Shown: positions 36,826-53,866 of the stretch, in pieces
Layout: each line of letters opens with the position of its first letter
How positions within the stretch are numbered: the stretch's first letter is position 1
NCBI GenBank assembly: GCA_964571555.1
Contig: CAZNCH010000001.1
Location: forward strand, 1,265-65,264
Direction of reading: 5' to 3'
From: an uncultured Lachnospiraceae bacterium
Lineage (GTDB): Bacteria; Bacillota; Clostridia; Lachnospirales; Lachnospiraceae
DNA length: 64,000 bases
The notes under the pieces: model-generated
Told to the model about the DNA's origin: nothing
The model's input: the letters and a program-made list of their open reading frames with translations, nothing else
Databases searched by the model: none
Position numbers and translations under genes: made by a program

Positions 36826-38778
36826 ATGGAGCGGCTGCAAAATATTGGAGATTATCGTACGGTCAATGCTTATGTAGCCGCGAAACTGGAACGGTTTTTC
36901 GGAATGGAGCGCACGTTTCGCGCATTGTTTCAACTGATGTTTTCCGAGAAAGAGAACGTCATGTATGAGAAGAGCGTCGGCTTTCAAGTTGAAACCACGA
37001 CTTACGGAGAAGCGTTCACGAAAACCTGTGAACTCGCAGGAATTCTGCAAGCGCGCCTGAAAGGGGTTCCGCGGGATTCCGTCATCGGTCTTTATCTGGA
37101 AAACGATCTGTCCTGGATTGAGTTCTTCTGGGCAATTCTTGCCGCGGGTTATCGTCCCCTCCTGCTGAATATCCGACTCGATGATGAAGTTCTGACAGAG
37201 GCATTGGAGGCGGCAGGCGCATGTGCGGTCATTTCTGCGCAGAAGTCCTTTGCGCCGTGCTTCATGCTGTCTGCAGCGGAGTTGTTGCATACGGAAACAA
37301 AGCCGCTCTTTACGGAAGCGGAATTTGGCAGCGAAATTCTGGTGATGTCTTCCGGAACAACACAGACGCCCAAGCTCTGTGCTTACACCGCAGAGGCGTT
37401 TTATTATCAGATCGGGGATTCCGCGGCGATCATCAGAAAAAGCACGCGGATCAAAATGCATTATCACGGACAGTTAAAGCAGTTGACCTTTCTTCCGTTT
37501 TATCACGTATTCGGTCTGATTGCGGTCTATATCTGGTTTGCCTTTTTCTCGAGAACTTTCGTGCATTTGTCGGATTTCAGCGCGGCAACGATTCTTCAGA
37601 CGATCAGAAAACACGAGGTAACGCATATCTTTGCAGTTCCGATGTTCTGGAACACAGTCTATGCGCAGGCGCTGAAAACAATCCGTGATAAGGATAACGA
37701 AACACAAATCAGGTTTCAAAAGGGAATGGCTCTTGCAAAAAAGATCGGCGATGTTCCCGTTTTGGGAGCATGGTTTACGAAGCGCGCTTTCCGTGAGATC
37801 AGAGAGAAGTTGTTCGGCGAGAGCGTCTGTTTTATGATTTCCGGCGGAAGTGAAATTTCAACGGAAGTGCTGACCTTCTTCAATTCGATCGGCTATCATC
37901 TGACAAACGGGTATGGCGCTACGGAAATCGGAATCACCTCCGTAGAGCTCAGAAACAGGAGAAAACCCCGAAACAGCGGTGCCGTCGGACGACCGCTGAG
38001 ATCAGTCGAGTACCGGATTAACGAAGCAGGAGAATTGCTTGTGAGGGGGAAAACAACCGCATCTTATCTGATTGAACGGACAGAAAAGAAGCCCAATGAA
38101 GGCTGGTTCAACACGCACGATCTCGCGGAAGAAAAGAACGGATATTATTATATTCTCGGACGAAAGGATGATCTGGTCGTTTCGGAAACGGGAGAGAATT
38201 TGAACCCGAATCTGATTGAGAGTCTGCTTTCCGAAGGCTTGAGCAACGAGGTCTGTCTGATCGGCCCCAAAGAGAACGGAGCGGTTGTTCCCACCTTGCT
38301 GGTATCGACCGGAAAGAGACTGTCGGAAGAAGAATTTAACGCCTTGCAGAAGCGCTATGTCGAGAAACTTCATGCAACGCACTTAAACGGAGAGATCCGA
38401 AAGATTTTCTTTACGAAGGAACCGCTGATCTATGAAGACGAGATCAAACGGAACCGGACACGTCTGAAAAGAGCTTATCTGGCGGGAAAACTGCCGGAAA
38501 TGAAACCTTATCGGGAGCGCTGCGCCGAACAGCGCAGCCAAACGTTTCGTTACGTGCGGGGACTCTTTGCGGAGGTGCTCCATTGCAAAGAAGAGGAAAT
38601 TACGGGAGAAGGCGACTTCTTTTTAACATACGGCGGAAACAGCCTGGCATATTTTACCGTGATTGCTATTCTGCAGGACGAACTGGGGATTTCTTTCCCG
38701 ATGTCCGAGGGAAAAGGGCTGAATACCGTGAATGAAATCTGCGACTTTATTGAGGAACGGAAAGCAGATGAGAATTAG
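36826..38778 (+). CDS. AMP-dependent (acyl-adenylate forming) ligase fused to a C-terminal carrier-protein domain
   Basis: Adenylation core motifs MSSGTTQTPK, GYGATE and GRKDD. The C-terminal ~80 aa carry the phosphopantetheine attachment motif GGNSL. Confidence 0.8.
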   Translation: MERLQNIGDYRTVNAYVAAKLERFFGMERTFRALFQLMFSEKENVMYEKSVGFQVETTTYGEAFTKTCELAGILQARLKGVPRDSVIGLYLENDLSWIEFFWAILAAGYRPLLLNIRLDDEVLTEALEAAGACAVISAQKSFAPCFMLSAAELLHTETKPLFTEAEFGSEILVMSSGTTQTPKLCAYTAEAFYYQIGDSAAIIRKSTRIKMHYHGQLKQLTFLPFYHVFGLIAVYIWFAFFSRTFVHLSDFSAATILQTIRKHEVTHIFAVPMFWNTVYAQALKTIRDKDNETQIRFQKGMALAKKIGDVPVLGAWFTKRAFREIREKLFGESVCFMISGGSEISTEVLTFFNSIGYHLTNGYGATEIGITSVELRNRRKPRNSGAVGRPLRSVEYRINEAGELLVRGKTTASYLIERTEKKPNEGWFNTHDLAEEKNGYYYILGRKDDLVVSETGENLNPNLIESLLSEGLSNEVCLIGPKENGAVVPTLLVSTGKRLSEEEFNALQKRYVEKLHATHLNGEIRKIFFTKEPLIYEDEIKRNRTRLKRAYLAGKLPEMKPYRERCAEQRSQTFRYVRGLFAEVLHCKEEEITGEGDFFLTYGGNSLAYFTVIAILQDELGISFPMSEGKGLNTVNEICDFIEERKADEN

Positions 38779-39409
38779 ATTGGTTCACTTATTTACAAAA
38801 ATCACGGCGTGGCCGGTGCAGCGGCTCTGTTTCAGAACGAAGATCTATTATGAGGACAGAGCGGCGCAGGGGCGCAGGATCCGGGGCAGCGCCATCGTGG
38901 TATCCAATCATACGTCCATTTACGACTATGCGGTCTATCTGTTTGTGTTTTTCGGCAGAACGCTTCGCGCCCAGATGGCGGAGGTGCTGTTCAAAAAGAG
39001 AATCCTCGGCAGGTATTTAAAATGCATGGGCGGGATCCGTGTCGATCGGAATATCCATGATATGGGATTCATGGCGGAGTCGGAACGGATTCTGAAACAG
39101 GGCGGCGCGGTGATGATTTTTCCGGAGGGGCGACTGCCGCGAAAAGAGGAAACAGAGTTGCTTCCGTTCAAGACAGGGGCGGCATTTCTTGCTTTGTCGA
39201 CCGGCGTTCCCGTGATTCCCGTCTATACGAACGGCTCGTATTTTTGCAGAAAATGCGCGTGTGTGCTGATTGGCAAGCCGATGCTGCTCTCGGAATATGT
39301 CGGGGCGTCAACGGATCCGAGGGAGAATATCAGCGCAGCCAACAGAGCTTTGCGCGCGCGGATTGCGGCACTGGGAGAACTGCTGGATGAGAGAACAAAA
39401 GAGAGTTAA
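38768..39409 (+). CDS. PlsC/LPLAT family acyltransferase 1
   Basis: HX4D motif (SNHTSIYD) and FPEGR block. Its start overlaps the preceding gene by 11 nt. Confidence 0.8.
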   Translation: MRIRLVHLFTKITAWPVQRLCFRTKIYYEDRAAQGRRIRGSAIVVSNHTSIYDYAVYLFVFFGRTLRAQMAEVLFKKRILGRYLKCMGGIRVDRNIHDMGFMAESERILKQGGAVMIFPEGRLPRKEETELLPFKTGAAFLALSTGVPVIPVYTNGSYFCRKCACVLIGKPMLLSEYVGASTDPRENISAANRALRARIAALGELLDERTKES

Positions 39410-40040
39410 GCGTTTTTCTTTCGAATATTTTTTCTATGATTTTGTCAAGGTAACGGCTGCGCTGCCGGGGCTGGTTGCTTTTCGACCGAAGTATTTGTTC
39501 GAGAACGAAAAGGCGAAGCGGCGGATTCGGGGCGGTGCGATCCTGATCGGAAACCACAACGGATATTTTGATCCGATCGGCATGATGCTCTGCGTCTATT
39601 ACCGCAGACACCGTTTTGTCTGCACCAAGGAGTTTTTCGAAGGCAGAAAAGGATTTTTCTTTCGGAACTTTCGGTGTATTGCGATCGATCGCAATAATTT
39701 CAGCGTGGATGCATTTCGGGAGATTGTTGAGAGCCTGCAAAAGGGTGAGATCGTCAGCATGTTTCCGGAGGGCAGGATTATTTTTGACGATGCACTTGCC
39801 GCTTTCAAATCCGGCATGGTGTTGATGGCTATGAAGAGCGGTTGTCCGATCGTTCCGATTTATGTGTTGAAGCGAAGAAACTATTGGGAACGACTGATCA
39901 TGGCAGTCGGCGAACCGGTCGACGTGAGGGAAGCTTTAGGCGGGAAATCCCCGCTTTCCGGCATGGACGCCGTTTCGGAACTGCTGCACGAGAAAGAAGT
40001 GAAATTGAAGAAGTTGTGCGAGGAGGCGCGAGGGAAATGA
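39387..40040 (+). CDS. PlsC/LPLAT family acyltransferase 2
   Basis: HX4D motif (GNHNGYFD) and FPEGR block. Its start overlaps the preceding gene by 23 nt. Confidence 0.8.
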   Translation: MREQKRVKRFSFEYFFYDFVKVTAALPGLVAFRPKYLFENEKAKRRIRGGAILIGNHNGYFDPIGMMLCVYYRRHRFVCTKEFFEGRKGFFFRNFRCIAIDRNNFSVDAFREIVESLQKGEIVSMFPEGRIIFDDALAAFKSGMVLMAMKSGCPIVPIYVLKRRNYWERLIMAVGEPVDVREALGGKSPLSGMDAVSELLHEKEVKLKKLCEEARGK

Positions 40041-41545
40041 AAACAAAAGGGAGAGAGGTGTTCGAAAAATATACAACGCCCGAAACGATGGAACGGATCA
40101 GGGAAGTTGCGACCGTATCCCGGATGTGGGAGCATTGTCTTGATGCGTATAGCGATAACGAAGCAATCAGCGATAACGGCGTGTCTTACACCTTTGCGCA
40201 AATAGAGGCGCGTGCGTCCCGCCTGCGGGGGCTGCTCTTAAAAGAACATGACGCGGCAAAGCGGATCGGACTCTATATGACGAATTCCGTCAGTTTCGCG
40301 GAAGCCTTTCTTGCGATTGTAACCGCCGGCTTCACTGCGGTCATACTGCCGCCGCAGTTGGATGATAAAGCCGTATTCGGCTGCTGCATGAAGTTCGACA
40401 TCGGAACGCTGCTGTATCTTCCTTCGATGGAAGAAAAGGTACAGACGGCGGCGAAAATGGCGCCCGGGATCAAGTTGTTTCCTGCTGATGTTAAGACGTT
40501 GGAAACAGCGCAGATTCAATCCTGTGACGCGACGACGCCGTGCGTTGTGATGTTTACCGGGGGAACAACGGGACAGAGTAAGGGCGCGCTGTTGAGCAAC
40601 GGTGCGGTGATGCAGGGCGTGGTCAACGGCTGCTACGGATATCGGGATGTTTTCGAGCAGAGGTATTTTCTGGTGCTTCCGCTTTCCCATGTCTTCGGTT
40701 TGATTCGGAATCTGCTGACTTCATTCTATACGGGCAGTTCCCTGTTTATCTGCAAAAACAATATGGATATGTTCCGCGACATCGCGATGTTCAAACCCAC
40801 CGTTTTGGTTGTGGTTCCGGCGCTCGCGGAAATGGCGCTGAAACTTTCCAAACAGTTTGGCAGGAATATGCTCGGGCCCGACATGAAATATGTGATCTGC
40901 GGCGCGGCAGCCGTTGCGCCGTATCTGCTCAGCGAGTACCGCAAGTTCGGGATCAGCCTGTTTCCGGGATACGGTTTGACGGAATCTGCGAATCTGGTGT
41001 CCGGAAATCCGGAAACGGTGGAGAAGCCGGACGCCGTCGGGATTCTGTACCCGAATCAGGAATACCGAATCGAGGAAGGCGAGCTCTGGCTCAGGGGAAG
41101 CAATATCATGGACGGTTACATCGGAGAGCCGGAAACCGGCATGGAGGACGGCTGGTTCAAAACCGGCGATCTGGTGAAGGTCGATGCGGACGGTTTCCTC
41201 TATATTGTCGGCAGGAAGAAAGAAGTGATCGTTCTGGCAAACGGTGAAAATGTATCGCCTGCGGAAGTGGAAGCGAAGTTCAACCGTCTGAAGTTCGTGC
41301 AGGATTCTCAGGTATTCGAGGACGTGACCGAGGGCGGAACGCATATTCTTGCGCTGGAAATCGTGCCGAGAGTCTCTGAACTGAACGACGTTGCGCAGGA
41401 AGATCGGAACACCTATATGATGGCGGCGCTGGAACAGGTCAATGCGACGCTGCCGGGTTATCAGAGGGTCAACCGCATGGAAATACGGGAAACGGATTTC
41501 GAAAGAACGCCGAGTATGAAGATTGTGAGATATCATAAATGCTGA
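40037..41545 (+). CDS. AMP-binding acyl-CoA/acyl-ACP synthetase-like ligase
   Basis: Motifs FTGGTTGQSKGA, GYGLTE and GRKKE. ATGA start/stop overlap with the preceding gene. Confidence 0.85.
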   Translation: MKTKGREVFEKYTTPETMERIREVATVSRMWEHCLDAYSDNEAISDNGVSYTFAQIEARASRLRGLLLKEHDAAKRIGLYMTNSVSFAEAFLAIVTAGFTAVILPPQLDDKAVFGCCMKFDIGTLLYLPSMEEKVQTAAKMAPGIKLFPADVKTLETAQIQSCDATTPCVVMFTGGTTGQSKGALLSNGAVMQGVVNGCYGYRDVFEQRYFLVLPLSHVFGLIRNLLTSFYTGSSLFICKNNMDMFRDIAMFKPTVLVVVPALAEMALKLSKQFGRNMLGPDMKYVICGAAAVAPYLLSEYRKFGISLFPGYGLTESANLVSGNPETVEKPDAVGILYPNQEYRIEEGELWLRGSNIMDGYIGEPETGMEDGWFKTGDLVKVDADGFLYIVGRKKEVIVLANGENVSPAEVEAKFNRLKFVQDSQVFEDVTEGGTHILALEIVPRVSELNDVAQEDRNTYMMAALEQVNATLPGYQRVNRMEIRETDFERTPSMKIVRYHKC

Positions 41546-41802
41546 GGAACAGAAGTGAAATATTAGAACAGTTGAAACAGGTGCTGCGCTCTGCGGATGA
41601 GAGCAAGGCGGCAATCATCGAAGCCTGCACGGAAGAAGCGAATCTGGCGACGGATTTGGGTCTTTCCTCGGTTGGGCTGCTCTATGTGGTCATCTCCATC
41701 GAGGAACAGTTCGGGATTCGATTTGAAAACGTGGGAATTGCCGATTTTGTTACCGTCAGAGACGTGGTAGATTACATTGAGGGACGCTCGGGCACATGCT
41801 GA
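41539..41802 (+). CDS. acyl carrier protein
   Basis: 87 aa with the attachment-site motif DLGLSSVG. Overlaps both neighbours by 7 nt. Confidence 0.8.
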   Translation: MLRNRSEILEQLKQVLRSADESKAAIIEACTEEANLATDLGLSSVGLLYVVISIEEQFGIRFENVGIADFVTVRDVVDYIEGRSGTC

Positions 41803-42734
41803 TCTTGAGAATAGCGCTGACGATATTCGTCTTGTATGTGATTTTCCTTTTAGGTCCGTCGATCGTGATGTATTTCAGGCTTTTTGTTCCGCGGTCGGGA
41901 ACGCCTTATGAAGAGAGGAATCTGCGCGGAACTTATCTTGAGAAGCACAGGGAACGGATACGGGAAGACAGCGCATATTTCAAAACGCAGAAATGCGAAG
42001 AGGTCAAGGTGATCTCGCAGGACGGCGTCAGGCTGTACGGAGAGTTCTACGGGGAGAATCATTCCGAAGTCGTATTATGCGTGCACGGGTACTTATCGAC
42101 GCCGCTCAACTGCTTTTCAACCATGGGGAAGTTCCTGCTGGAAGACGGCTACGGCGTGCTTCTGATTCATCAGCGCGGAAACGGAAAAAGCGAAGGCAGG
42201 CGGGGCGGCTTCGGGTTGATCGAATGTAATGATCTTTCGCTTTGGATTCGAAGTTTACGTGAGCGCGGAGCGAAACACATCTTCCTCGCGGGCATGTCCA
42301 TGGGCAGCGCAACGATCTGCTATGCGTCTCCGTTCTTAGAACAGCCGCCGGTTGCCGGCATGATCCTTTGCTGCGGTTTTGTTTCGCCCTATCGGCTGCT
42401 ATCGGATGCCTGCGATGAAAAGCATCTGCCGACGCGCCTGCTCCTGCCCCATATCGAATTTCTGGCAAGGTGGCGCTTAAAGATTGACCTTAAGGAGACG
42501 ACCGATGCGTCTCTTGAAAGAAACCGGATCCCGTCGCTTTTCGTGCACGGAACAGAGGACGCTTCGGTGCCCCTCTCAGACAGCAGGAGTCATTATGAGC
42601 ATTGCAGCGCAGAGAAACGCCTCTGCATTGTGGAAGGCGCCGGTCATTCCGATCTTTTTCTGATCGGAGAGGACGCGGGTCGCGCCGTAAAAGAATTTGT
42701 GGAACAACACAGCGAACGGAGAATGTCAAATTGA
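41796..42734 (+). CDS. membrane-anchored alpha/beta hydrolase (paralog 2 of 3)
   Basis: N-terminal TM helix, GMSMGS nucleophile elbow, and HGTEDASV / GAGHSD acid and His motifs. Confidence 0.75.
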   Translation: MLILRIALTIFVLYVIFLLGPSIVMYFRLFVPRSGTPYEERNLRGTYLEKHRERIREDSAYFKTQKCEEVKVISQDGVRLYGEFYGENHSEVVLCVHGYLSTPLNCFSTMGKFLLEDGYGVLLIHQRGNGKSEGRRGGFGLIECNDLSLWIRSLRERGAKHIFLAGMSMGSATICYASPFLEQPPVAGMILCCGFVSPYRLLSDACDEKHLPTRLLLPHIEFLARWRLKIDLKETTDASLERNRIPSLFVHGTEDASVPLSDSRSHYEHCSAEKRLCIVEGAGHSDLFLIGEDAGRAVKEFVEQHSERRMSN

Positions 42735-43666
42735 GTGACTTTGTAATTATGGCAGATTCAACCTGCGATCTGCCGGAGGAATTCCAGAAGAAGTATGATG
42801 TTATTGTGCTGCCGGGGCACGTGATTTTACCGGACAAATCAGAGGTTCTTTCCAGACCGAAATGGGAATATTTTGAGAGAGAGTCTTTCTATGAGCAGCT
42901 TCGGAACAATCCCGACGGCTTCGTTACGGCGCCGCCGAATGTCAGCGAATTCACGGCGGCATACGAGGAATACGCAAAACAGGGGAAGGACATCCTCTGC
43001 CTGACAATATCAAGCGGGATCAGCGGTGCATTTAATTTCAGCACCCTTGCCAGAGAAGCGGTGTTAAGGAAATATCCCAATGCCAGAATCATCAATATCG
43101 ATTCGATGCGATTCGGTCCCGGCTTCGGTCTGATGGTTGTGTATGCCGCAACGCTGCGCAGCGAAGGGTTGTCCATCGAAGATGTGGCGCAGCAGATTGA
43201 AACGAAGAAGAATACTTTTCATCAGGCGGGATGGCTCGACGATCTGTCTTTCGTCGCCAAGAAGGGAAGAATCACACACGCCAAAGCCTTTTTCGGTTCT
43301 CTTGCCGGGGTGAAGCCGATCGGAGAATTCGACTATAACGGTCTGACGACGGTGATCGGAAAGGCGAAGGGCGCCAAATCCGCCTATGCGGTTCTGCTGC
43401 AATATATCGAGCAGACCATCGTGGATCCGAAGAACCAGATCATTTTTATTGCGCAGTCCAACCGGCTGAAGCAAGCCGAACAATACAAGCAGATGATCCT
43501 GGAGAAATTTCATCCGAAGGAGATCTATATCAACGATGTATTCCCGTCCTGCGGCGTGAATATCGGTCCGGGGCTGATGGCGGCATACTATATGGGAACA
43601 CCGATATCCAAAGATCTTTCCAGAGAAAGGGAGATCCTTGAAAAGGCAATGAACCAAGGGGGTTGA
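42731..43666 (+). CDS. DegV family fatty-acid-binding protein (FakB-like)
   Basis: DegV N-terminal pattern (V)IMADSTCDLP and the family length. The TTG at 42731 (TTGA overlap, GGAGA RBS) is preferred. The ATG at 42749 is the alternative start. Confidence 0.8.
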   Translation: MSDFVIMADSTCDLPEEFQKKYDVIVLPGHVILPDKSEVLSRPKWEYFERESFYEQLRNNPDGFVTAPPNVSEFTAAYEEYAKQGKDILCLTISSGISGAFNFSTLAREAVLRKYPNARIINIDSMRFGPGFGLMVVYAATLRSEGLSIEDVAQQIETKKNTFHQAGWLDDLSFVAKKGRITHAKAFFGSLAGVKPIGEFDYNGLTTVIGKAKGAKSAYAVLLQYIEQTIVDPKNQIIFIAQSNRLKQAEQYKQMILEKFHPKEIYINDVFPSCGVNIGPGLMAAYYMGTPISKDLSREREILEKAMNQGG

Positions 43667-43668
43667 AG

Positions 43669-45015
43669 ATGAAGAAATTACAAAAGAAAAGCGAACTGAT
43701 ACTCTATGCGATTTCCGGTATGGGAATCAACATGCTGAATCTGATGATGGCGTCGTATTTGTGCAGTGCGCTGCTGATCGGCGGCTTTGGCGAGACGGCG
43801 ATTCCGTATCAGACCTATCTGCAGAAGGATCTGATTCTTCCGGCGGTCTGGGCGGTTTTTGCCCTGCTTGCCAAGATTCTGGACGGTGTGATTGATATTC
43901 CGATGGCGGCCTTTACGGATAATTTGAAGAGCAAATGGGGGAGAAGACGCCCTGCGATCCTGTTAGGACTGGTTGTGACGGTAATTTCCTATCTTCTCTT
44001 TCTGCTGGTGCCGAATGCGAGCGGCGCGACCCTTGGCAACACGATCTATTACGGCGTCGTTCTCTGCGTTTTCTATTGTTTCTATACGCTGACCATGGTG
44101 ACCTATTATGCGACCTTTACGGAAATTGTCGACACGACGGAGAAACGGAATATTCTCTCCAATGTGAAGTCGGTGTGTGATGTCGCATATTTCATTCTCG
44201 GCTATGTTGCGGTACGCATCCTTTTAAACGGGGTCAATATACGGAAGGTGGCATTGATTGTGCTGCCGATCGCGCTGACGATGATCATTCCGCTGTTCAT
44301 GATCAAAGAGCATTCGACGCTTGCGGGCGAAGCGGAATGCGAAGTGCCGGTCAATCTGATGCAGTCCCTGGTTTTCACCCTGAAAAACAAGACTTTCATC
44401 CTCTGGATGCTGACCTTTTCGTTCATGACGTTTAGCGTACAGCTCTTCCTTGGCGGAATCAATGAATATTTCTCCTTCGTGGGAATGAATATGATCCTGA
44501 TTATGATGTCGGCGTTTGCGCCTGTGCCGCTGACACTGCTCCTGTTCCGCTTTCTGATCCGGAAATACGGTTTCGGCTTCGCTTTCCGTTATGTGCTGGT
44601 CATCTTCTGCGTTTCGATGACGTCCATGGGTCTGATCGGCTTTATGGCGGCGGGAACACTAAAATCCGTACTTGCAATCCTCTCCGGACTGATTGCGTCC
44701 TTTGCCGTGGGCGCGATGTTTTCCGTTGCCTATTCCGTACCGGCGCAACTTGCGGCGGAAGAAGAGGAGAAGACGGGGATCGGCAATTCCGCGATGTATT
44801 TTGCGGTGCAGGGGCTGTTCGCAGGCGTTGCCTCCGGAATTGCAACGGGGGTTGTGTTGACTGCGCTGAAAGGTTCGCAGAACCACCCCACCGATGCAAT
44901 CAAATATATGACGCTGATCGCGGCGGCAGGCTGTCTGTTATCGTTGCTCGTTTCGAAGACGCTGCCGGAATCGGTGGTTCAAATGGGCAGGAACGGGGAA
45001 ACGAAAGACGCATGA
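43669..45015 (+). CDS. MFS transporter of the glycoside-pentoside-hexuronide (MelB/MFSD2-like) type
   Basis: 12-TM profile and the GPH loop 2-3 motif DGVIDIPMAAFTDNLKSKWGRRRPAIL. Confidence 0.75.
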   Translation: MKKLQKKSELILYAISGMGINMLNLMMASYLCSALLIGGFGETAIPYQTYLQKDLILPAVWAVFALLAKILDGVIDIPMAAFTDNLKSKWGRRRPAILLGLVVTVISYLLFLLVPNASGATLGNTIYYGVVLCVFYCFYTLTMVTYYATFTEIVDTTEKRNILSNVKSVCDVAYFILGYVAVRILLNGVNIRKVALIVLPIALTMIIPLFMIKEHSTLAGEAECEVPVNLMQSLVFTLKNKTFILWMLTFSFMTFSVQLFLGGINEYFSFVGMNMILIMMSAFAPVPLTLLLFRFLIRKYGFGFAFRYVLVIFCVSMTSMGLIGFMAAGTLKSVLAILSGLIASFAVGAMFSVAYSVPAQLAAEEEEKTGIGNSAMYFAVQGLFAGVASGIATGVVLTALKGSQNHPTDAIKYMTLIAAAGCLLSLLVSKTLPESVVQMGRNGETKDA

Positions 45016-46667
45016 AAACAAGAAGAATCAGCGGACGGCAGTTCGAACGGATGGTTCGGAACGGACTGGCGAATTTAAGCGAATACGAGACCAAACTGAA
45101 CGCGCTGAATGTTTTTCCCGTGGCGGACGGAGACACCGGAACGAATATGATCGCTACGTTAGCCGGCGGGATTGCTGCAGCCAAAAGCAACGAGCATGCG
45201 GGTCTTTACCTGAAATCATTGACGGACGGAATGCTGCTCGCTGCCAGAGGGAACTCGGGCGTGATCCTGTCACAGCTGTTTCGGGGATATTATCGGGCAC
45301 TCTCCAAATGCCCCATCATCGGGATAGGAGAATTCAGAAACGCATTGATTCACGGATACCGTTCGGGCTATGACGCTGTAGTCAGACCCGTGGAAGGAAC
45401 GATCTTAACGGTTGCACGGGAGGGAATCGAGCATATCCGCGCACAGATCGGAAGGAATACGACGCTGGAAGAATTGCTCTCCATGTATGTCGCTGAAATG
45501 AGAAAGAGTCTCGCGCAGACGCCGGAACTGCTTCCGGAATTGAAAAGCGCAGGCGTCATAGACAGTGGGGCGCTCGGTTACATTGCGGTCGCAGAGGGGA
45601 TGCTGAAATATCTGTACGGAGAACTCGTAGAGATGAAGCAGGAGAATGCGGAGACAATCGGCATGGAAAAGAACGAAAGCGTCGTGGACTATTCGGTCTT
45701 TCACGAAAACAGTCCTTTTGAAGAAGGTTATTGTGTTGAGTTTCTGTTGCAGTTGATGCGTTCTGAGCAATATCTGCAGAACTTTCGATTGCGGAAATAC
45801 ATTGAGGATCTGAATGATTTCGGCGAATCGATCGTGGCGGTGCAGGATGAGAGCCGTGTCAAGGTGCATATCCATACGCTGAAACCAGCCAAGGTGCTTT
45901 CTCTCAGCCAGGATTACGGAGAATTCCTGACCTGTAAGATTGAGAATATGCAGTTGCAGCACAACGAACAGCTGAAGAGGAAAGAGATCAGCAAGCCGAG
46001 ATCGGAATTCGTTATCGTTTCCATGGCGGATACGAATCGAATGAAGCAGATCCTTTTTGATCTCGGCAGCGATTACGTGATCCCCGGCGGTGCCGGAATG
46101 AATGCTTCCGTGCAGATGTTTTTGGACGCGTTTGAGGAAGTGAACGCAGAGACGATCGTTGTGCTTCCCAATGATGCGAACTCGATCTTCTCCGCCAGAC
46201 ACGCGGCGAAGATCTATGATCGGGCGAAGATTGTAATTCTGGAAACGAAGTCCGTTCCGCAAGGCTATTACGCACTGGCGATGGATGTTCCCGACAGCAG
46301 GGATATCAATTTCCGAATTTCACAAATGAAAAAGGGCATGACGGAAACGGAAACACTGTTTGTCAGCAAAGCGTCCAAGCCCTATCGGAGCGATGTTTTC
46401 TCCTGCGAGGAGGGTGCAAGGATCGCCATCGTCGGGGAAGAAGTGGTTGCCGAAGGAGCAGATAACGTGGACGCCTTCCTCAAAGGGCTGTCCTTTGTGG
46501 ACGGGATTGGGGAGAAGGAAGTCTGCGTGATTTTCAGAGGAGATTCGGAAGCCGGATATGAGGAAGCAAGGCTGCAAAATGCGGTCAATGACGCCTATCC
46601 GGATCTGGAAGTGGAATTTATTGACGGCGGCTCCAAACTGTACAGTTGGATGGCTGCCATTGTATAA
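45012..46667 (+). CDS. DAK2/DhaL-domain protein of the YloV/FakA (fatty acid kinase ATP-binding subunit) family
   Basis: The N-terminal DhaL motif LNVFPVADGDTGTNM and the ~550-aa three-domain length match FakA/YloV. ATGA overlap with the MFS gene. Confidence 0.75.
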   Translation: MKTRRISGRQFERMVRNGLANLSEYETKLNALNVFPVADGDTGTNMIATLAGGIAAAKSNEHAGLYLKSLTDGMLLAARGNSGVILSQLFRGYYRALSKCPIIGIGEFRNALIHGYRSGYDAVVRPVEGTILTVAREGIEHIRAQIGRNTTLEELLSMYVAEMRKSLAQTPELLPELKSAGVIDSGALGYIAVAEGMLKYLYGELVEMKQENAETIGMEKNESVVDYSVFHENSPFEEGYCVEFLLQLMRSEQYLQNFRLRKYIEDLNDFGESIVAVQDESRVKVHIHTLKPAKVLSLSQDYGEFLTCKIENMQLQHNEQLKRKEISKPRSEFVIVSMADTNRMKQILFDLGSDYVIPGGAGMNASVQMFLDAFEEVNAETIVVLPNDANSIFSARHAAKIYDRAKIVILETKSVPQGYYALAMDVPDSRDINFRISQMKKGMTETETLFVSKASKPYRSDVFSCEEGARIAIVGEEVVAEGADNVDAFLKGLSFVDGIGEKEVCVIFRGDSEAGYEEARLQNAVNDAYPDLEVEFIDGGSKLYSWMAAIV

Positions 46668-46678
46668 GAGGTGGAAGT

Positions 46679-47623
46679 TTGAACATTGCTTTTATCATTT
46701 CGGCGATCATTTTGCTGCTCGCGGTTTTCTTCGTGATCGCCATGTCGCTGGTTCTCTACAACATCATTCTGGTCAGAACATCGGAGCTGAAATGGGGACG
46801 GGAATGCAGCATCACGGAGGATGCGGAATATCAGCGCATGTATGATATCGGGCTTGCCTGGGAACAGCATCACCGCGATTGCAAGTCGGAGGTTTTCGTA
46901 CAAAGCGACGGATTCAGACTTGCAGGGGAATATTTTGACTTTGGCTCTGACCGCGCGGTGATCATTGTGGCGGGACGAACGGAGTCCTGTCTCTATTCCT
47001 ACTTTTTCGCGGAGCCTTACCGCGTTGCCGGCTACAATGTTTTGGTCATTGATAATCGCGCACATGGCTTGTCGGAGGGGAAGCGCGTCTCGCTGGGCTT
47101 CAAGGAATACAGGGATCTTCTGAAATGGGGCGAACTGCTGCATGAGGAAAAGGGGAACGCACATCTTATGCTGCACGGAATCTGTATCGGGTCTTCGGTT
47201 GCGCTGTTCACGCTCACCGATCCGTCGTGTCCCGCCTACTGGGACGGAATGGTTGCAGAGGGAATGTACACCACGTTTGCGGAGTCCTTCAAGAATCACA
47301 TGATTCAGGATCACAGACCGCTGTTTCCGATCTTCTATGTGACAATGCTGTGGGTGCTTTTGCTTTCCGGCGCCAACGTAATGACGGACGGTCCTCTGAA
47401 GCGGCTGCCGCTGCTGAAGAAGCCGATTCTCTTTCTGCACAGCAGAGAGGATGTATTTTCTCTGCCGGAGAAGGCGGAACTGTTATATGAAAAGTGCAAG
47501 GCGCGAAAAGAAATGGTCTGGTTTGAAACCGGCGCGCATTCCAGACTCCGCATCCGTCATTTAGAGGCGTATGATGCGGCGGTTCGTGCATTTGCGAAAA
47601 GACTGAGGAATGAGAATATTTAA
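46679..47623 (+). CDS. membrane-anchored alpha/beta hydrolase (paralog 3 of 3) with Cys in the nucleophile elbow
   Basis: TTG start after GAGGTGGA and an N-terminal TM helix. The elbow reads G-I-C-I-G (Cys codon TGT at 47183-47185) where the paralogs have Ser. Asp (HSREDVF) and His (GAHSR) are retained. Confidence 0.7.
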   Translation: MNIAFIISAIILLLAVFFVIAMSLVLYNIILVRTSELKWGRECSITEDAEYQRMYDIGLAWEQHHRDCKSEVFVQSDGFRLAGEYFDFGSDRAVIIVAGRTESCLYSYFFAEPYRVAGYNVLVIDNRAHGLSEGKRVSLGFKEYRDLLKWGELLHEEKGNAHLMLHGICIGSSVALFTLTDPSCPAYWDGMVAEGMYTTFAESFKNHMIQDHRPLFPIFYVTMLWVLLLSGANVMTDGPLKRLPLLKKPILFLHSREDVFSLPEKAELLYEKCKARKEMVWFETGAHSRLRIRHLEAYDAAVRAFAKRLRNENI

Positions 47624-48746
47624 TCGAAAATCAAAGAACAGAAAGAGAATGCCCGGCGCTAACGTGATTGCAGCAGCATGCGGAAGCGCCCTCTTGTTGT
47701 GCGGCTGTAATCAGACAGCGCCTGCTGCCGAAGCCGTGATTCCGCACAAGACCTATCAGAAACTGGAATATGTCACAACCGTGGTACAGAAGGGCGATAT
47801 GAAACCGGTGCTGACCTTGAAACTGAAGGCGCAGCTCGGCACGCAAATCCGCTATACGGTGAATTTGGCGGACGCCGAGGTGGATGAAGTCTATGTGAGC
47901 ACGGGAGACAAGGTAGTCAAGGGGCAGCTTCTGGTCTCCTTCAAGTCCGAGAAAACGAAAAAGGAAATTGAGAACTACAGGGCGGAGCTCGAAGAAAAAC
48001 AGTTGATGCTCGATCATTATACCAGAATGTCTCTGTTTGATTTACAGGAGCGGGAATATTACGAAAAAGAGCGGAAGGAGTATCCGCTTTATCAGCAGCA
48101 GGAAGATGAGATCAACAAAGAACGGGATCAGGAGAGCAAACGCCGGAAGGCGGCGGATTACAGTTTCACTGTACAACAGTTGCAATCGGATGTGGATCTG
48201 GCGGCGCTCTATCTGGAAGAAGCAACTGCCAGACTTGAGAATTGTCAGATTCGGGCAGAAGAGGACGGCGTCATCTCCTTTATGAGTCAGGGCTTGCTCA
48301 GCGGCTATGTACAGCCCGGCGAAACCCTGATGAACGAAAACTGCGGAGAGAATACCTACGCCGCCTATACCAGGGACGACTATGATTTTCGGATCGAAGA
48401 CAGTTTTACGGCGGAGGACGAGAACGCTTCCTACAAAATGACGGTGACGCAGACGAGCGGAGAAGACGACGGGACGAGACGAATCGTGTTCGTACCGGAT
48501 GCGACGCTGCTCAATCCGCCGGAGGGGGAAGCGCTTACCATGACCATCGAGAAGACCCGTTTGTTCGACGTGGTCTATGTGGAAAAGGGAGCAATCGCAA
48601 CCAAGGGAGAGCAATCTTTCGTCTATCTGGTATCGGAGAACGGCTTTCTTGACGCAAGAGAAGTGGAAACGGGGGAAGTCGTAGAGAATATGGTTGTAAT
48701 TAAAAAGGGTTTGAACGGGAACGAAAAGGTGGCAGTGATCAAATGA
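47610..48746 (+). CDS. HlyD/MacA-family membrane fusion (periplasmic adaptor-like) lipoprotein
   Basis: Lipobox LLCGC, a lipoyl-like hairpin (VYVSTGDKVVKGQLLVSF), a coiled-coil stretch, and beta-barrel/membrane-proximal segments. Confidence 0.75.
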   Translation: MRIFNRKSKNRKRMPGANVIAAACGSALLLCGCNQTAPAAEAVIPHKTYQKLEYVTTVVQKGDMKPVLTLKLKAQLGTQIRYTVNLADAEVDEVYVSTGDKVVKGQLLVSFKSEKTKKEIENYRAELEEKQLMLDHYTRMSLFDLQEREYYEKERKEYPLYQQQEDEINKERDQESKRRKAADYSFTVQQLQSDVDLAALYLEEATARLENCQIRAEEDGVISFMSQGLLSGYVQPGETLMNENCGENTYAAYTRDDYDFRIEDSFTAEDENASYKMTVTQTSGEDDGTRRIVFVPDATLLNPPEGEALTMTIEKTRLFDVVYVEKGAIATKGEQSFVYLVSENGFLDAREVETGEVVENMVVIKKGLNGNEKVAVIK

Positions 48747-51004
48747 GAAAACAGACATTTGGAAAGTGCGTGTGGGGGGTCATGGCGGCGTGCCTGCTGC
48801 TTGGCGGGTGTAAGGATGCAAGAGAGGTCCCGGCGCTGATCGAACCGGTTGCCGCCAACCAGTCGTTTCGACCGGTGGAGAGAAGAAATATCGGGAAAAT
48901 CCATGTTTCGATTGGAAATGTAGTGGCGGCGGAGGATTGCTATTACTATAAAAAGGTCACAACGATCAAGGAAATCCGTGTCAATGTCGGACAGCGGGTC
49001 GAAGAAGGCGACATTCTGGCGACGGCGGATCTGGAAGCGCTGGAGAATGAACTGGAGGATATTTCCGATCAAAGGGCATATTTCAGTGCGCTTCATGACG
49101 CCAACCAGCCCTTGTATCCGCTCCGGCTCGATCTGATCGACGTCGATAAACGCAGTTACGTCAACAGAGAGGACGGAAAGAGCGCTGCGGAGTGCGATAA
49201 TAAGACCAATCTGGAAAAAGAGAACTATCTCTACGACGAGAAACTCTTTGAGTACCAGATGAGACAACTTGCAAAGCGAGCGGAAGAAGTAAGGGAACAG
49301 ATTGCGGACGCGACGCTTAGGGCAACCAGGGCAGGCGTGGTCACCTACATTAAAAACACCGGCAAAAACAATGTGGCAAGGATAAACGAAGTCGTCGTGA
49401 TCGTGGCGGATGAAAACGACGTTTACATCGAAACGCCGGATCAGACCACCGAGGTGAACAAGTATAAGAAATACGAAGTGAAGTATGCGCTGATCGACGG
49501 GAAGGAGATTCCGGTTACGGAAGTGGAATATACGGACGATGAAACGATCTATGCAAGGGCGCAGCGCAGTTATCCCTGTATCCGTTACAAGACGCAGGAG
49601 CCGACTGATCTGAAGCCCGGAAATTCCGTCGTGCTCTGTTTCTTTCAGAAGGATCGGACCCGGGCGCTGTGTGTCGGTTCGGATTCCCTGAACTCGGATG
49701 ACGTCGGGAACTATGTCTATGTGAAAGGAAACGGGGATGAACTTGAAAAGCGCTACGTGTTAACCGGTGCTTCTGACGATTATTTTACGGAGATCCTTGA
49801 CGGGTTGGAGGAAGGAGAAGCGGTCTTCTATGTGCAGGAAATCGCGTCCCCCGTGAACTACAAAGAATATCGGGTCGAGAGTCGGGAGTATACGCAGACC
49901 TATATGAGCCTGAAACTGCGAGAGGGGCAGACCTTGAATCAGGCATATTTCGCCCCCTGCTTGGGAACCGTGAAGGAGATCCGTGTGGATCAGGGGAAGT
50001 GGGTAAAAAAGGGAGATGTGCTCATGGTCATTGATACCGGAGGCGGCGCTTCCGCGATTCAGGAGATTGTCAATGAGAAGAACCGGATCAAGGCGGATTA
50101 TGATAAGACGGTCAACAGTCTGGACGGGCAGCTCTATGATACAACCGCGCAAAAGGAGATTACAACGATAGAGGCAGGTATGTTCCACATGTGCGAACCG
50201 GATTATTTATTTGCCATGGAACGGGCGCAGATCCAGCAGAAGATGGCGGTTTACCAGAAGGAAGTGGCGAAGGCGGAGTATGAAGGGAGAATCAGACAGT
50301 GCAACAGGCGCCTGGAGCGCGTAAAAAAGGATAATGACGGCGCCGGTCTGGTCAGTGTAGTAGCGGAAGAGGACGGTATGATTTCGCGGATTCATGTCAA
50401 GGAAGGCGCTCTCATTAAGGAAAACGGCGAGAATCATCTCCTGTTGTCCTGCGCCGCTTACACACCGGATATCGTGGCGGTTTCGGTAAACACCATTCTC
50501 TCGCTTTCGTTGAACGGAAGAGTGAACGGCGTCTGTCCGATCGGAGCAAAGGTGCGAATCGTAGATTCGGAGGATGATTCGATCGCTTTCTCCGGCGTCT
50601 GCGTCAGCAATGCGTGGGATACAAAAAGTTATGCCTTTACCGAAGAAGACGGACGTGCGCGCGCGGTGACAATCAGCGATGAAGACAATAAAGAGAATTA
50701 CTTCTATGTCAAAATGGATGATCCCGAGTTTCTGGAGAAGCTCAACGTCAACAAAGCCGCAGCTTATCTGGACACGATGCAGGGGGAGAACATGATTGCG
50801 ATTCCTGCGCGGCTGCTCTACAAAGAGGAGAGCAAGACCGATAAAAAGGAAAAGTATTTCGTCTGGAAACTGCAGGACGGAAATCCCGTCAAGCAGTATG
50901 TGATCAGAGGTACGGAGTACGGTCTCGGAAATGAAACGGAAACAGTGATCCTGCAAGGAATCTCGAACGGAGATATTCTGGCGGATGAAGGAAATCATCA
51001 GTAG
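48743..51004 (+). CDS. tandemly duplicated HlyD/MacA-family membrane fusion lipoprotein (two complete adaptor modules in one chain)
   Basis: Lipobox LLLGGC. There are two lipoyl-type motifs (IKEIRVNVGQRVEEGDILATAD and VKEIRVDQGKWVKKGDVLMVID). Each is followed by a coiled coil, a second half-lipoyl (RAGVVTYI / DGMISRIHVKEG) and beta-rich domains. Confidence 0.7.
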   Translation: MRKQTFGKCVWGVMAACLLLGGCKDAREVPALIEPVAANQSFRPVERRNIGKIHVSIGNVVAAEDCYYYKKVTTIKEIRVNVGQRVEEGDILATADLEALENELEDISDQRAYFSALHDANQPLYPLRLDLIDVDKRSYVNREDGKSAAECDNKTNLEKENYLYDEKLFEYQMRQLAKRAEEVREQIADATLRATRAGVVTYIKNTGKNNVARINEVVVIVADENDVYIETPDQTTEVNKYKKYEVKYALIDGKEIPVTEVEYTDDETIYARAQRSYPCIRYKTQEPTDLKPGNSVVLCFFQKDRTRALCVGSDSLNSDDVGNYVYVKGNGDELEKRYVLTGASDDYFTEILDGLEEGEAVFYVQEIASPVNYKEYRVESREYTQTYMSLKLREGQTLNQAYFAPCLGTVKEIRVDQGKWVKKGDVLMVIDTGGGASAIQEIVNEKNRIKADYDKTVNSLDGQLYDTTAQKEITTIEAGMFHMCEPDYLFAMERAQIQQKMAVYQKEVAKAEYEGRIRQCNRRLERVKKDNDGAGLVSVVAEEDGMISRIHVKEGALIKENGENHLLLSCAAYTPDIVAVSVNTILSLSLNGRVNGVCPIGAKVRIVDSEDDSIAFSGVCVSNAWDTKSYAFTEEDGRARAVTISDEDNKENYFYVKMDDPEFLEKLNVNKAAAYLDTMQGENMIAIPARLLYKEESKTDKKEKYFVWKLQDGNPVKQYVIRGTEYGLGNETETVILQGISNGDILADEGNHQ

Positions 51005-51012
51005 GTGGAGAA

Positions 51013-53865
51013 ATGCTGCAACTCATCAAGAATAAGATCAAAAACAAAAAATTGCTGAATTTAAGCCTTCTGACAGGCGTGATTCTCCTTGCGGGTCTGC
51101 TCTGCGTCTACCCGATCTTTCGAGAGGGGAGTCTGAACCGGCTCCTCATGACGATGTTTACGGACGCCATTGAGGAAAAAGAGCAATACCCTGCGGTCAT
51201 CATGCGGAACGGACTACTGGCGGAAGAGGATTTCACCTCTGTTGACTCCATTCTTGCCGAAATGGACGCCTATGAGAAAAAGTGGGGTGAGAAAATTACT
51301 GCACCCGTCGTGGAACGACAACGCCTGATTCGCATTCCCGGCGGAAACGCAGAGACCAGTTTCGGTGAAAAATCACGGGTCGTAACGCTGGGCTATGTGC
51401 CAGAGTTATATGAACATGCAGACGTCGTGTACGGCGTTGCCGCGGATCGTGCGGAACAATCCGATAACGAATATGTGTTGGATGCCTTGCGTTTGGGCGC
51501 TTATCCCTGCGTGATCTCGCAGACGACGATGGATAAATACGGGCTGGTGGTCGGCGAACAACTCTCGTTTAAATTCAGACTTTACGGGGATCCGACGCCC
51601 TATGATTTCGTGATAACAGGCATCGTTGAAGAAAAGGAAAATGACGGTCGCTACTGGTACAGCCGGTTACGCGAGAACGATAAGATGCTCTTTGTGAACA
51701 AAGATGATTTTAACGAACTCGTGATTCTGTCGGAGAGTGCGGAGATTCGCTATGAAGCGGAAGTGATGTATGACTTTTCAAAGATCAACTGTAAGAATGC
51801 ACCCGAATATCTGGATGCATTAATCGCTTTCAAAGCGGAAGATGAGCACCTGTACCCCAATTTCGATCATACGCTGAGCCGTTATCTCGAGCAGGAAAAG
51901 GCAATCAGTGTGATCCTGCTCACCTTTGAACTGCCGATAGTGGCACTTTTACTGCTTTTCCTTTATATGATTTCGGATCGGATCCTTGAAATGGAGACAA
52001 CGGAAATCTCCATGTTGAAGAGCCGCGGCGTCAGCCGAGCGAAAATCATCGGTCTCTATGTCGGTCAGTCTTCTCTGATCGCTTTGATCGGCTGTATCAT
52101 CGGCTTGCCGGTGGGCTTCTTTCTGTGCAGGCTGGCAGCAGGCACAAACGCCTTTCTTTCGTTCTCCATGAAAGACGTCGGCACTTATTTGCCGACTCCC
52201 ATGATGCTGCCGTTTGCAGCGCTTGCTTTTGTCCTGTCCGTGCTTTTCATGACGCTTCCCGTGATCGCTCTTTCGCGGCTTACGATCACAGACAGGAAGG
52301 GAAAAAGAATCTCCCTGCATCACATCCCGTTTTGGGAGAAGGCGTTCCTCGATGTGCTGCTGTTGGGCGTATCAGGCTATCTTCTCTACAACTATTACAA
52401 ACAGAGCGAAGAAATGTCGGCGCGCATCATCGGCGGCGGCAGTATCGATCCCGTGATTTTTCTCGATTCAACGCTGTTTATCCTATCCTGCGGTCTGCTC
52501 TTTATCCGCCTTACGGGATATCTGGTAAGGCTGATTTATCGGCTCGGCAGAAAACACTGGAAACCGGCGACCTTTGTCGCTTTCATGCAGATCATCCGCG
52601 GGGTCGGAAAGCAGGGCTTCATCTCCGTTTTTCTTGTGATGACGATTGCCATGGGGGTCTTCAATGCGAATCTCGCAAGAACCGTCAATGAGAATGCGGA
52701 ACGAAGAACAAGTTACAATCTCGGCACGGATTTAAGACTGCAGGAGAAGTGGAAGTTAACGACGATCCGCGTGAACCCTACCGACCCGACGCCGCTCTGG
52801 AACTATTCCGAGCCCGATTTCGAACGGTACAGATTCTTAGAGGAGTTCGGCGCAGAAGAGATGACGCGGGTCATCTGTGACGAAAATACGGATCTTGTGA
52901 TCGATAAGAAGGTGGAGAAGGGGAATACCCTGATGGCGATTCACACAAAGGAATTCGGAGAGACGGCAACACTGCCGGAAGGCGTGAATGACGTGCATTG
53001 GTTTCATTACCTGAACCAGCTGGCAAAGCTTCCGAACGGGGTGCTTATTTCAAGCAATCTTGCGCAGAAATACAGTCTCAAAGAAGGGGATAAAATCAAA
53101 TATGAAAGATACAGCCCTGTGAATGAGAAAGAGCCGTATCAGACCGTGGAGGCGAAGATCTGCGGCATTGTCGATGCGTTCCCGGGCTATGAGAGCGCAG
53201 CCTACACCGCAAAAGAGGACGGAACGGTAGAGCTTCGCGAGAACTATCTTGTAGTTGCCAATTATGCGACTGTGGTGAATGATTTCTCCATCACCCCATA
53301 CCAGATCTGGATTCGTCTGAGGAATTACGCGGATTCCGATCAGATGGAGCGCGCAATCGAAGATGCGGGAATCACGCTGACATCCTTTACGTCTCTGGAG
53401 AGAGAGATCCAGGATCAGCGGGATTCCGCGATGATCCAGATTACCAACGGGATGTTCTCCGTCGGGTTTATTATTTCGCTGTTGATCTGCGCGGTCGGTT
53501 TTCTGATCTATTGGATCCTGACCATTCGGGAGAGAGAACTGCTCTACGGAATCTATCGGGCAATGGGGATGAGTATGCGTGAGATCCAGAAAATGCTGGT
53601 AACGGAGCAGATTTTCAGTTCGCTTCTGGCAGCAGTGTCCGGCTTCGGCGTCGGCGCAGTGACGACGCTGCTGTTCACAAAGTTGATTTCCATCGTATAT
53701 CTGCCGCGGAAACATAATCTTCCGATTGAAATTGCGATGAAGCCGGAGGACAGCATCAAAATGGTGGTGATCATCGTGATCGCGTTCGCCGTTTGCTTCT
53801 ATATCATGCGCAAAACAATCCGAAACATGAACATTACACAGGCCTTGAAGATGGGAGAGGATTAA
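51013..53865 (+). CDS. ABC transporter permease with two MacB/FtsX-type modules
   Basis: 950 aa. The pattern TM - large extracytoplasmic domain - 3 TM occurs twice, and the C-terminal FtsX-type helices are recognisable. Confidence 0.8.
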   Translation: MLQLIKNKIKNKKLLNLSLLTGVILLAGLLCVYPIFREGSLNRLLMTMFTDAIEEKEQYPAVIMRNGLLAEEDFTSVDSILAEMDAYEKKWGEKITAPVVERQRLIRIPGGNAETSFGEKSRVVTLGYVPELYEHADVVYGVAADRAEQSDNEYVLDALRLGAYPCVISQTTMDKYGLVVGEQLSFKFRLYGDPTPYDFVITGIVEEKENDGRYWYSRLRENDKMLFVNKDDFNELVILSESAEIRYEAEVMYDFSKINCKNAPEYLDALIAFKAEDEHLYPNFDHTLSRYLEQEKAISVILLTFELPIVALLLLFLYMISDRILEMETTEISMLKSRGVSRAKIIGLYVGQSSLIALIGCIIGLPVGFFLCRLAAGTNAFLSFSMKDVGTYLPTPMMLPFAALAFVLSVLFMTLPVIALSRLTITDRKGKRISLHHIPFWEKAFLDVLLLGVSGYLLYNYYKQSEEMSARIIGGGSIDPVIFLDSTLFILSCGLLFIRLTGYLVRLIYRLGRKHWKPATFVAFMQIIRGVGKQGFISVFLVMTIAMGVFNANLARTVNENAERRTSYNLGTDLRLQEKWKLTTIRVNPTDPTPLWNYSEPDFERYRFLEEFGAEEMTRVICDENTDLVIDKKVEKGNTLMAIHTKEFGETATLPEGVNDVHWFHYLNQLAKLPNGVLISSNLAQKYSLKEGDKIKYERYSPVNEKEPYQTVEAKICGIVDAFPGYESAAYTAKEDGTVELRENYLVVANYATVVNDFSITPYQIWIRLRNYADSDQMERAIEDAGITLTSFTSLEREIQDQRDSAMIQITNGMFSVGFIISLLICAVGFLIYWILTIRERELLYGIYRAMGMSMREIQKMLVTEQIFSSLLAAVSGFGVGAVTTLLFTKLISIVYLPRKHNLPIEIAMKPEDSIKMVVIIVIAFAVCFYIMRKTIRNMNITQALKMGED

Positions 53866-53866
53866 G

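Follow-up and report, generated by a model that had tools for sequence, protein, structure and literature searches.

A DegV-transporter-FakA gene triad at the end of a conserved lipid-enzyme operon of gut and rumen Clostridia

Does a transporter gene placed between the two genes of a fatty acid kinase form, together with them, a dedicated channel for the uptake and phosphorylation of outside lipid? This question is raised by three adjacent genes in a 64,000-nucleotide stretch of DNA from an uncultured Lachnospiraceae bacterium (GenBank assembly GCA_964571555.1, contig CAZNCH010000001.1, positions 1,265 to 65,264 of the forward strand), which as a whole is called the window here. The genes code for DegV (FakB), a major facilitator superfamily (MFS) transporter and FakA, and a preliminary description of the window had proposed such a dedicated channel. 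The proposal can be kept in so far as the triad is tied to lipid enzymes, but it covers only a part of the system, as the triad is the tail (3' end) of a translationally coupled and conserved operon of about 11 genes (about 35427-47623). We favour, with a probability of roughly one half, the reading that this operon serves lipid salvage and re-acylation, i.e., that fatty acids or lysolipids from outside the cell are taken up and made into membrane lipid.

The operon genes are all on the + strand and either overlap or nearly abut. Besides the triad they code for two acyl-adenylating enzymes (A-T and A2), two carrier proteins (one fused to A-T, the other a small acyl carrier protein, ACP), two PlsC-type acyltransferases (AT1 and AT2) and three membrane-anchored alpha/beta hydrolases (ABH0, ABH1 and ABH2).

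The triad and its conservation

The DegV/FakB gene (42731..43666, +; Pfam DegV 199 bits, TIGR00762 203 bits) starts with TTG at 42731, with an alternative ATG at 42749. The gene of the transporter, a protein with 12 transmembrane (TM) helices from a narrow GPH/MFSD2-related family, follows at 43669..45015 (+; PF13347 MFS_2 92.9 bits), and its ATG start gives MKKL..., which is also the consensus N-terminus of the homologues. FakA (YloV), the catalytic subunit, is encoded at 45012..46667 (+; TIGR03599 464 bits, cut-off 396) and is a complete three-domain protein consisting of Dak2 (PF02734), FakA-like_M (PF21645) and FakA-like_C (PF13684). The open reading frames and their junctions were found as the preliminary description had given them, with a 2-nt gap between DegV and the MFS gene (43667-43668) and an ATGA overlap between the MFS gene and FakA (45012-45015), and the KWGRRRP loop motif named there is likewise present, in the form D-x3-D...KWGRRRP (LDGVIDIP...KSKWGRRRP). 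On the upstream side, the gene of ABH1 (41796..42734, +; Hydrolase_4 72 bits, with a GMSMG motif) overlaps the DegV start by TTGA, and the triad is therefore not a free-standing unit.

Both kinase components keep the residues needed for catalysis. In S. aureus FakA, the Mg/ATP ligands and the Cys-His-His residues were shown to be needed (PMC9136124), and the window residues N33, D39, D41, T42, N81, C241, H286 and H288, corresponding to S. aureus Asn32, Asp38, Asp40, Thr41, Asn82, Cys240, His282 and His284, are invariant in 20 operon-type FakAs. The closest solved structure to DegV is S. aureus FakB2 (4x9x, E 6e-27); DegV keeps T66, S94/S98 and R180, and in the alignment R180 is the counterpart of Arg173, an essential residue of FakB (PMC9136124). 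The histidine of FakB2 is an asparagine (N277) in the window DegV, and we dropped this as a sign of a different ligand, since generic DegVs vary at that position too.

Conservation was surveyed in metagenomes by a scan with the MFS profile, where the 80 best loci (44-67% identity) were scored by phmmer with the window proteins. DegV lies directly upstream of the MFS gene in 60 of the 63 loci with upstream room, FakA directly downstream in 54 of the 60 with downstream room, and the exact DegV-MFS-FakA order is present in 48 of the 51 loci in which both flanks could be scored; the other three (L143, L144 and L151) read DegV-DegV-FakA-MFS-A-T-AT-ACP. The order of the triad is thus more than chance. 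The five-gene module A-T, AT1, AT2, A2 and ACP stands upstream in 27 of the 32 loci whose upstream flank spans 7.5 kb or more. More than 1,400 MFS homologues were found, and the best 120 of them (61-77% identical) belong without exception to uncultured Clostridia, with the labels Oscillospiraceae, Lachnospiraceae or Acutalibacteraceae. The same order, A-T/AT/AT/A/ACP/[LRAT +/- PPTase]/ABH1/DegV/MFS/FakA/ABH2 (PPTase, phosphopantetheinyl transferase), recurs on three long contigs whose flanks are unrelated, and the operon was met with differing flanks in metagenome-assembled genomes (MAGs) labelled Bacillota, Oscillospiraceae, Lachnospiraceae, Ruminococcus and Saccharofermentans. The bracketed gene is of LRAT/NlpC-P60 type with an NCEHF motif, is found at the ACP/ABH1 junction of some 50 related loci (e.g., L001:7076-8119) and is usually fused to an Sfp/AcpT-like PPTase; it is absent from the window, where ACP directly overlaps ABH1. 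It can be seen that this is a widely conserved and undescribed operon of gut and rumen Clostridia, and full-text literature searches found no description of either the operon or the MFS family.

The expectation that fakA and fakB are usually unlinked proved wrong for Clostridia, where DegV directly adjoins FakA in many generic loci. The operon-type FakAs stand as one clade, 42-50% identical to the window FakA among the matches listed, and the generic clostridial and bacillar FakAs lie apart from it, at most 39% identical to the window FakA among the same matches. Operon-type FakA, DegV and MFS each form a distinct lineage of their own. An Erysipelotrichaceae MAG (L015) has MFS-FakA together with a divergent DegV and AT, and a Bacilli MAG (L174, ENA ERZ27249489 k141_630207; MFS 50% identical) has the order MFS/DegV/FakA/PlsX/x/A-T/AT/ACP, in which AT is of double length and the gene between PlsX and A-T (x) is unknown. 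The linkage of MFS and Fak thus survives rearrangement and spans Clostridia, Erysipelotrichaceae and a Bacilli MAG. With its FakA-PlsX context, the Bacilli locus also indicates that to set a "dedicated" kinase against a "housekeeping" one may be a false choice.

The operon around the triad

The first gene of the operon (35427..35843, +) codes for a small membrane protein in which an N-terminal zinc ribbon (Zn_Ribbon_1 34 bits) is joined to a DUF4190-like membrane part (weak match); genes of this type are recurrent neighbours of the operon, lying downstream of it in L001, L003 and L170. It is followed by the gene of ABH0 (35860..36765, +; Hydrolase_4 54 bits, GHSAG nucleophile elbow), whose catalytic domain probably faces outward, because the N-terminus before the TM helix is strongly positive. 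ABH0 orthologues were found near the operon in many loci, at varying positions.

A-T (36820..38778, +) is an acyl-adenylating enzyme (AMP-binding 141 bits) with a fused carrier domain (PP-binding 46 bits) that has a GGNSL phosphopantetheine site. Its best NCBIfam matches are fatty-acid/MenE-type ligases, and we regard it as the putative acyl-carrier synthetase half of an Aas-like module. AT1 (38768..39409, +; PF01553 79 bits) is a PlsC/LPLAT acyltransferase without a TM helix and with the HX4D motif in the form NHTSIYD; its start is uncertain (ATG at 38732 or 38768), and among the models for acyl-[ACP]--phospholipid O-acyltransferase it has matches to NF006386 and NF005959, in each case to the acyltransferase part. 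The second PlsC/LPLAT acyltransferase, AT2 (39387..40040, +; PF01553 81 bits, NHNGYFD motif), has NF006386 as its best NCBIfam match (65 bits, under the cut-off). The stand-alone, FadD-like adenylating enzyme A2 (40037..41545, +; AMP-binding 180 bits) overlaps AT2 by ATGA and matches the adenylase part of NF005291, an Aas-type fusion, with 121 bits. The matches of AT1, AT2 and A2 to these Aas-type fusion models are to the corresponding segments and stay below the full-length cut-offs. ACP (41539..41802, +; PP-binding 29 bits, ACP models 34-44 bits, below cut-off) is kept after A2 in related loci.

On the other side of the triad, the gene of ABH2 (46646..47623, +; Hydrolase_4 50 bits), a membrane-anchored alpha/beta-fold protein, closes the operon, and this protein is the most constant partner of DegV-FakA. 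Its nucleophile elbow is HGICIG (H-G-x-C-x-G), where the cysteine is present in at least 95% of 52 orthologues and aligns to the serine of GFSMG in the esterase 5g59. Because cysteine replaces serine at this position, the sequence suggests thioester chemistry (acyl transfer or a thioesterase) for ABH2 and not simple lipolysis, and ABH2 would be a possible partner of Fak.

Downstream of ABH2, and overlapping it by 14 nt, begins a MacB-type block (47610..55568, +) of two HlyD/RND-adaptor-like proteins, one of them 753 aa long with two lipoyl-like hairpins, an FtsX/MacB permease of 950 aa and two ATP-binding cassette (ABC) ATPases. The block is absent downstream of the operon in L001-L005, so that its coupling to the lipid operon is seen in this genome only. 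A scan of the operon for promoters and terminators gave none that was clear, with a weak promoter-like site at 36754-36783, before A-T, and an Rfam scan returned no riboswitch or leader near the operon.

Elsewhere in the window, a bacterial small SRP RNA (RF00169, 78.9 bits) lies at 26285-26384 (+), and a run of + genes at 2792-11216 codes for a heavy-metal P-type ATPase, an MBOAT-family membrane acyltransferase (5414-6964), an unknown protein, an amine-oxidase-like flavoprotein and a PMT_2 glycosyltransferase-like protein; this run may be a cell-envelope modification cluster. About 7.5 kb past the right edge of the window there is a gene for an SCP2 (sterol/lipid carrier) domain protein (L166:17448-18452), which follows a Flp-pilus/type IV-like gene set.

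The transporter family

The kind of MFS transporter was approached by family models, fold and residues. With the GPH model TIGR00792 the protein scores 45 bits, where the cut-off is 231. At E<=0.001, only the gph and YagG models of NCBIfam match the protein and no LplT model does, and a search of PDB sequences with a 20-member family profile returned no MelB at E<=1 and only the loop 2-3 motif of SUC1 (E 0.019). The AlphaFold (AF2) model has 12 TM helices (pLDDT 75, pTM 0.75). Its top Foldseek matches are the MFSD2A structures 7mjs, 8d2t and 7oix (E 6e-10 to 3e-9, TM-score ~0.7), and MelB is matched with E 4.5e-9 and up (TM-score ~0.74), so that by the modelled fold the protein would be about equally close to MFSD2A and MelB; there is no LplT-like entry among the top 50 fold matches. 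In profile alignment by hhalign, MelB is matched with 85% probability over TM2-TM4 only, and MFSD2A weakly, with 49%. Membership in the LplT family was rejected, since no LplT model of NCBIfam was matched, and the fold shows no specific relation to LplT either.

MFSD2A is a Na+-dependent lysophosphatidylcholine (lyso-PC) symporter/flippase. Residues were compared in a MAFFT alignment with MelBSt and MFSD2A and by the fold matches, with the sequences taken from the PDB search output; at ~15-19% identity the equivalences are provisional, the TM1 of MelB was aligned by eye, and hhalign also supports the TM2 and TM4 blocks of the alignment. The cation site appears to be kept, with D72/D76/T140 equivalent to MelB D55/D59/T121 and to human MFSD2A D93/D97/T159, and this Asp/Asp/Thr site would be compatible with symport. 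The sugar-binding residues K18/D19/D124/K377 of MelB are replaced by I20/N21/M143/G386, and positions 21, 143 and 386 have no Asp or Lys across the family and in most relatives. The TM1 Gln of MFSD2A is an Asn in the window protein.

The score lies below the GPH cut-off and the sugar-binding residues are replaced, and the protein does not show the firm clustering with characterised sugar symporters by which the earlier proposal would have fallen. Gene context gives good support to a lipid rather than a sugar role, and the putative substrate is deduced from that context. Kinship to MFSD2A holds for the fold match and the cation site, while the TM11 lysine is missing and MelB is equally close. 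The protein seems best described as a member of a narrow, uncharacterised family (81 clusters at 50% identity for E<=1e-30 and 526 for 1e-10, among 1.84 billion representatives) and not as a plain MFSD2A orthologue. The C-terminal extensions of longer relatives showed no acyltransferase fusion; in one distant relative (P0248), the extension has a weak double zinc ribbon match.

A profile search was also made for distant MFS relatives (26-39% identity to the window protein), and seven contexts were looked up. Three of them, with MFS proteins 32-38% identical to that of the window, are lipid-enzyme operons without Fak: A-T/MFS/AT/AT/ACP/LRAT (L176), A/AT/AT/A/ACP-like/MFS (L171) and A-T/AT/A/ACP/LRAT/A-T-like/MFS/AT/DUF4190 (L170). 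The Bacilli locus described above belongs here as well, and one further context (L175) was uninformative. Across subfamilies, the recurrent partner of the transporter is the acyl-carrier synthetase with LPLAT acyltransferases, and the wider MFS family is tied at least as tightly to this adenylase/acyltransferase module as to Fak.

Salvage, its rivals and the known systems

In the favoured reading of lipid salvage and re-acylation, the transporter would be a cation-coupled (Na+ or H+) importer or flippase of GPH/MFSD2 type, which would carry an amphipathic acyl lipid to the cytoplasmic face, either out of the medium or from the outer leaflet. The membrane-anchored alpha/beta hydrolases, joined in most relatives by the LRAT/PLAAT-type enzyme, would release or transfer acyl chains; FakB would bind the free fatty acid and FakA phosphorylate it to acyl-phosphate for PlsY/PlsX. 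In parallel, the two adenylating enzymes would load fatty acids onto the two dedicated carrier proteins, from which AT1 and AT2 could place acyl chains on lysolipid or glycerol-phosphate acceptors, so that the adenylase/carrier/acyltransferase set would be a split and duplicated counterpart of Aas. As to what is carried, a lysophospholipid or another monoacyl lipid is our tentative choice, at slightly under even odds; it explains both contexts, either by re-acylation through the acyltransferases or by de-acylation feeding Fak. A free long-chain fatty acid, to which we give appreciable but clearly lower than even odds, fits both contexts too, because it is a substrate of both Fak and the adenylases.

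Several observations weigh against this salvage reading. Full operons without the MFS gene exist (L010 and L012), as do bare ABH1-DegV-FakA-ABH2 units (L008 and L009). A neighbour-joining FakA tree places both kinds within the clade of the loci that have the MFS gene, because of which the transporter was probably lost there and is not essential; it is dispensable for the operon. Two distant relatives have non-lipid contexts, one adjoining UxaC/UxuA, MatE and TetR (L173) and the other Amidohydro_2 and DcuC (L172), and relatives in such contexts (24-39% identity) have the same residue signature as the window protein. The TM11 lysine common to MelB (K377) and MFSD2A (K436) is an invariant glycine (G386) here. 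The dedicated carriers, the PPTase and the LRAT enzyme would also be in place in a cluster for the biosynthesis of a special lipid. Fatty-acid uptake by Gram-positives is generally held to proceed without a transporter. Finally, we infer what is transported and in which direction, and what the acceptors are, from gene context and from remote homology (15-17% identity to MFSD2A and MelB).

The main rival turns the direction of transport round: the operon would make a specialised diacylated lipid, the transporter would flip or export this product outward, in the manner of LtaA, which flips/exports the glycolipid anchor of lipoteichoic acid, and FakAB would supply or recycle acyl groups. Two adenylases, two dedicated carriers and, in most relatives, an LRAT-PPTase fusion do give the operon the look of a biosynthetic cluster, relatives of the MFS are encoded in compact A-T/MFS/AT/AT/ACP/LRAT operons that have neither Fak nor hydrolases, and a MacB-type ABC exporter is translationally coupled downstream in the window. 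That exporter, however, is not conserved in other genomes, the operon holds no conserved genes for head-group or scaffold biosynthesis, Fak and the hydrolases are salvage functions, and the conserved Asp/Asp/Thr site is shared with MelB and MFSD2A, which are importers. There are also full operons that do without the transporter, as said above, and, in the opposite direction, loci that have the triad and ABH2 without the acyltransferase module (L129-L132, L138 and L158; in L131 and L158 it is lacking within 5-10 kb upstream), which speaks for uptake on behalf of Fak and not for the export of something that the acyltransferases make. The reading of outward flipping is thereby weakened, and we consider it improbable, at long though not extreme odds.

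Import could also concern a polar lipid precursor (glycerophosphocholine, GPC, or another glycerophosphodiester, glycerol-3-phosphate or a glycoside), which AT1 and AT2 would acylate twice. Mitis-group streptococci have a GPC route to phosphatidylcholine. Two acyltransferases would suit an acylation in two steps, polar solutes are the typical cargo of the GPH superfamily, with some of the MFS relatives in sugar-acid loci, and Gram-positives are known to scavenge GPC and lyso-PC, with the transporter unnamed in the passages available (PMC6805115, PMC11416262). Against this, the tightest partners of the transporter, DegV and FakA, act on free fatty acid instead of a polar head group, there are triads that lack acyltransferases, and the acidic and basic sugar-binding residues of MelB have become Ile, Asn, Met and Gly; we therefore see little chance for a polar precursor, less than for outward flipping. 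That nothing special is present, i.e., that this is the site of the only fakA and of a fakB with an unrelated transporter inserted by chance, would agree with the common DegV-FakA adjacency in Clostridia, with the housekeeping-like position of MFS-DegV-FakA beside plsX in the Bacilli MAG and with the lack of a second FakA in the window or in the 10 kb past its right edge; to the left, the source contig (ENA ERZ28614609 scaffold_27, 122 kb) stops about 2 kb outside the window. Such an insertion is very hard to reconcile with an order kept in 48 of 51 loci, with a linkage that survives rearrangement and spans orders, with the distinct lineages of operon-type FakA, DegV and MFS and with MFS relatives that are linked to acyl-activating and acyl-transfer genes, and we give it hardly any weight.

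The salvage reading can be widened, in a form that we hold to be rather unlikely at present: the MFS family would be the missing Gram-positive importer or flippase of lysolipids or long-chain fatty acids, a functional counterpart of MFSD2A and an analogue of LplT, the operon would lead by itself from exogenous lipid to membrane phospholipid and bypass the housekeeping ACP and FASII (type II fatty acid synthesis), and ABH2, with its Cys nucleophile, would be a new partner of Fak in acyl transfer. Host or dietary lipid would then be handled by FakAB alongside two adenylase/carrier/acyltransferase pairs for position-specific acylation.

The matter is of more general interest as lysophospholipid uptake by Gram-positives, and whether fatty-acid entry is ever protein-assisted, are open questions. 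Scavenging of lyso-PC by streptococci is documented, and LplT-Aas is stated to be known only from Gram-negatives (PMC11416262). The MFS family is a concrete candidate whose genes, in abundant Clostridia of gut and rumen, are closely tied to Fak and an Aas-like module. Should the salvage reading be true, it would explain the way in which these anaerobes use host or dietary lipid for their membranes, would have consequences for resistance to FASII inhibitors and for what microbes do with dietary fats, and would provide a bacterial model for MFSD2A-type lipid transport.

Compared with known systems, the operon resembles the C-T-A (Oaa) fatty-acid-amide cassettes in its gut Clostridia hosts and in a fatty-acid adenylase with a carrier protein (PMC13060934, PMC13310621), and differs in that acyl transfer falls to PlsC-type acyltransferases; an assignment to these cassettes was rejected, as there is no condensation domain in any operon gene. 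With MelB and the GPH transporters, the MFS protein shares an equally good fold match, the D-x3-D of TM2 and the RxGRRxP motif of loop 2-3, but it falls below the GPH cut-off, its sugar-binding residues are replaced and there are no sugar-catabolic genes in the operon. With MFSD2A it shares the best fold match, the MFS_2 family, the Asp/Asp/Thr cation-site positions and the lipid context, although identity is only 16-19%, and K436 and the TM1 Gln are Gly and Asn in the window protein. The Fak systems of Staphylococcus and Streptococcus have the same two components, with the catalytic residues of FakA and the arginine of FakB in common (PMC9136124, PMC10848957). Unlike them, the operon has FakA and FakB of operon-specific lineages, and by gene layout their transcript also covers a transporter, hydrolases and an acyl-carrier/acyltransferase module, whereas no transporter is said to be required in the Fak systems that have been described.

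LplT-Aas offers the likeness of an MFS transporter encoded beside an LPLAT (HX4D) acyltransferase and an acyl-carrier-dependent adenylase (PMC11416262). MFS, A-T and AT are directly adjacent in L143, L151, L170, L171 and L176, and in the last of these the order A-T-MFS-AT-AT-ACP mirrors the aas-lplT operon or fusion. The differences are that the operon transporter is of GPH/MFSD2 type and not of LplT type, that the counterpart of Aas is split into separate proteins and duplicated, and that there are dedicated carriers, often with their own PPTase, where Aas uses the housekeeping ACP. The operon also adds FakAB, three alpha/beta hydrolases and, in relatives, the LRAT enzyme, and its host is Gram-positive, while LplT-Aas was identified only in Gram-negatives according to PMC11416262, whose authors also state that other lysolipid transporters may exist elsewhere.

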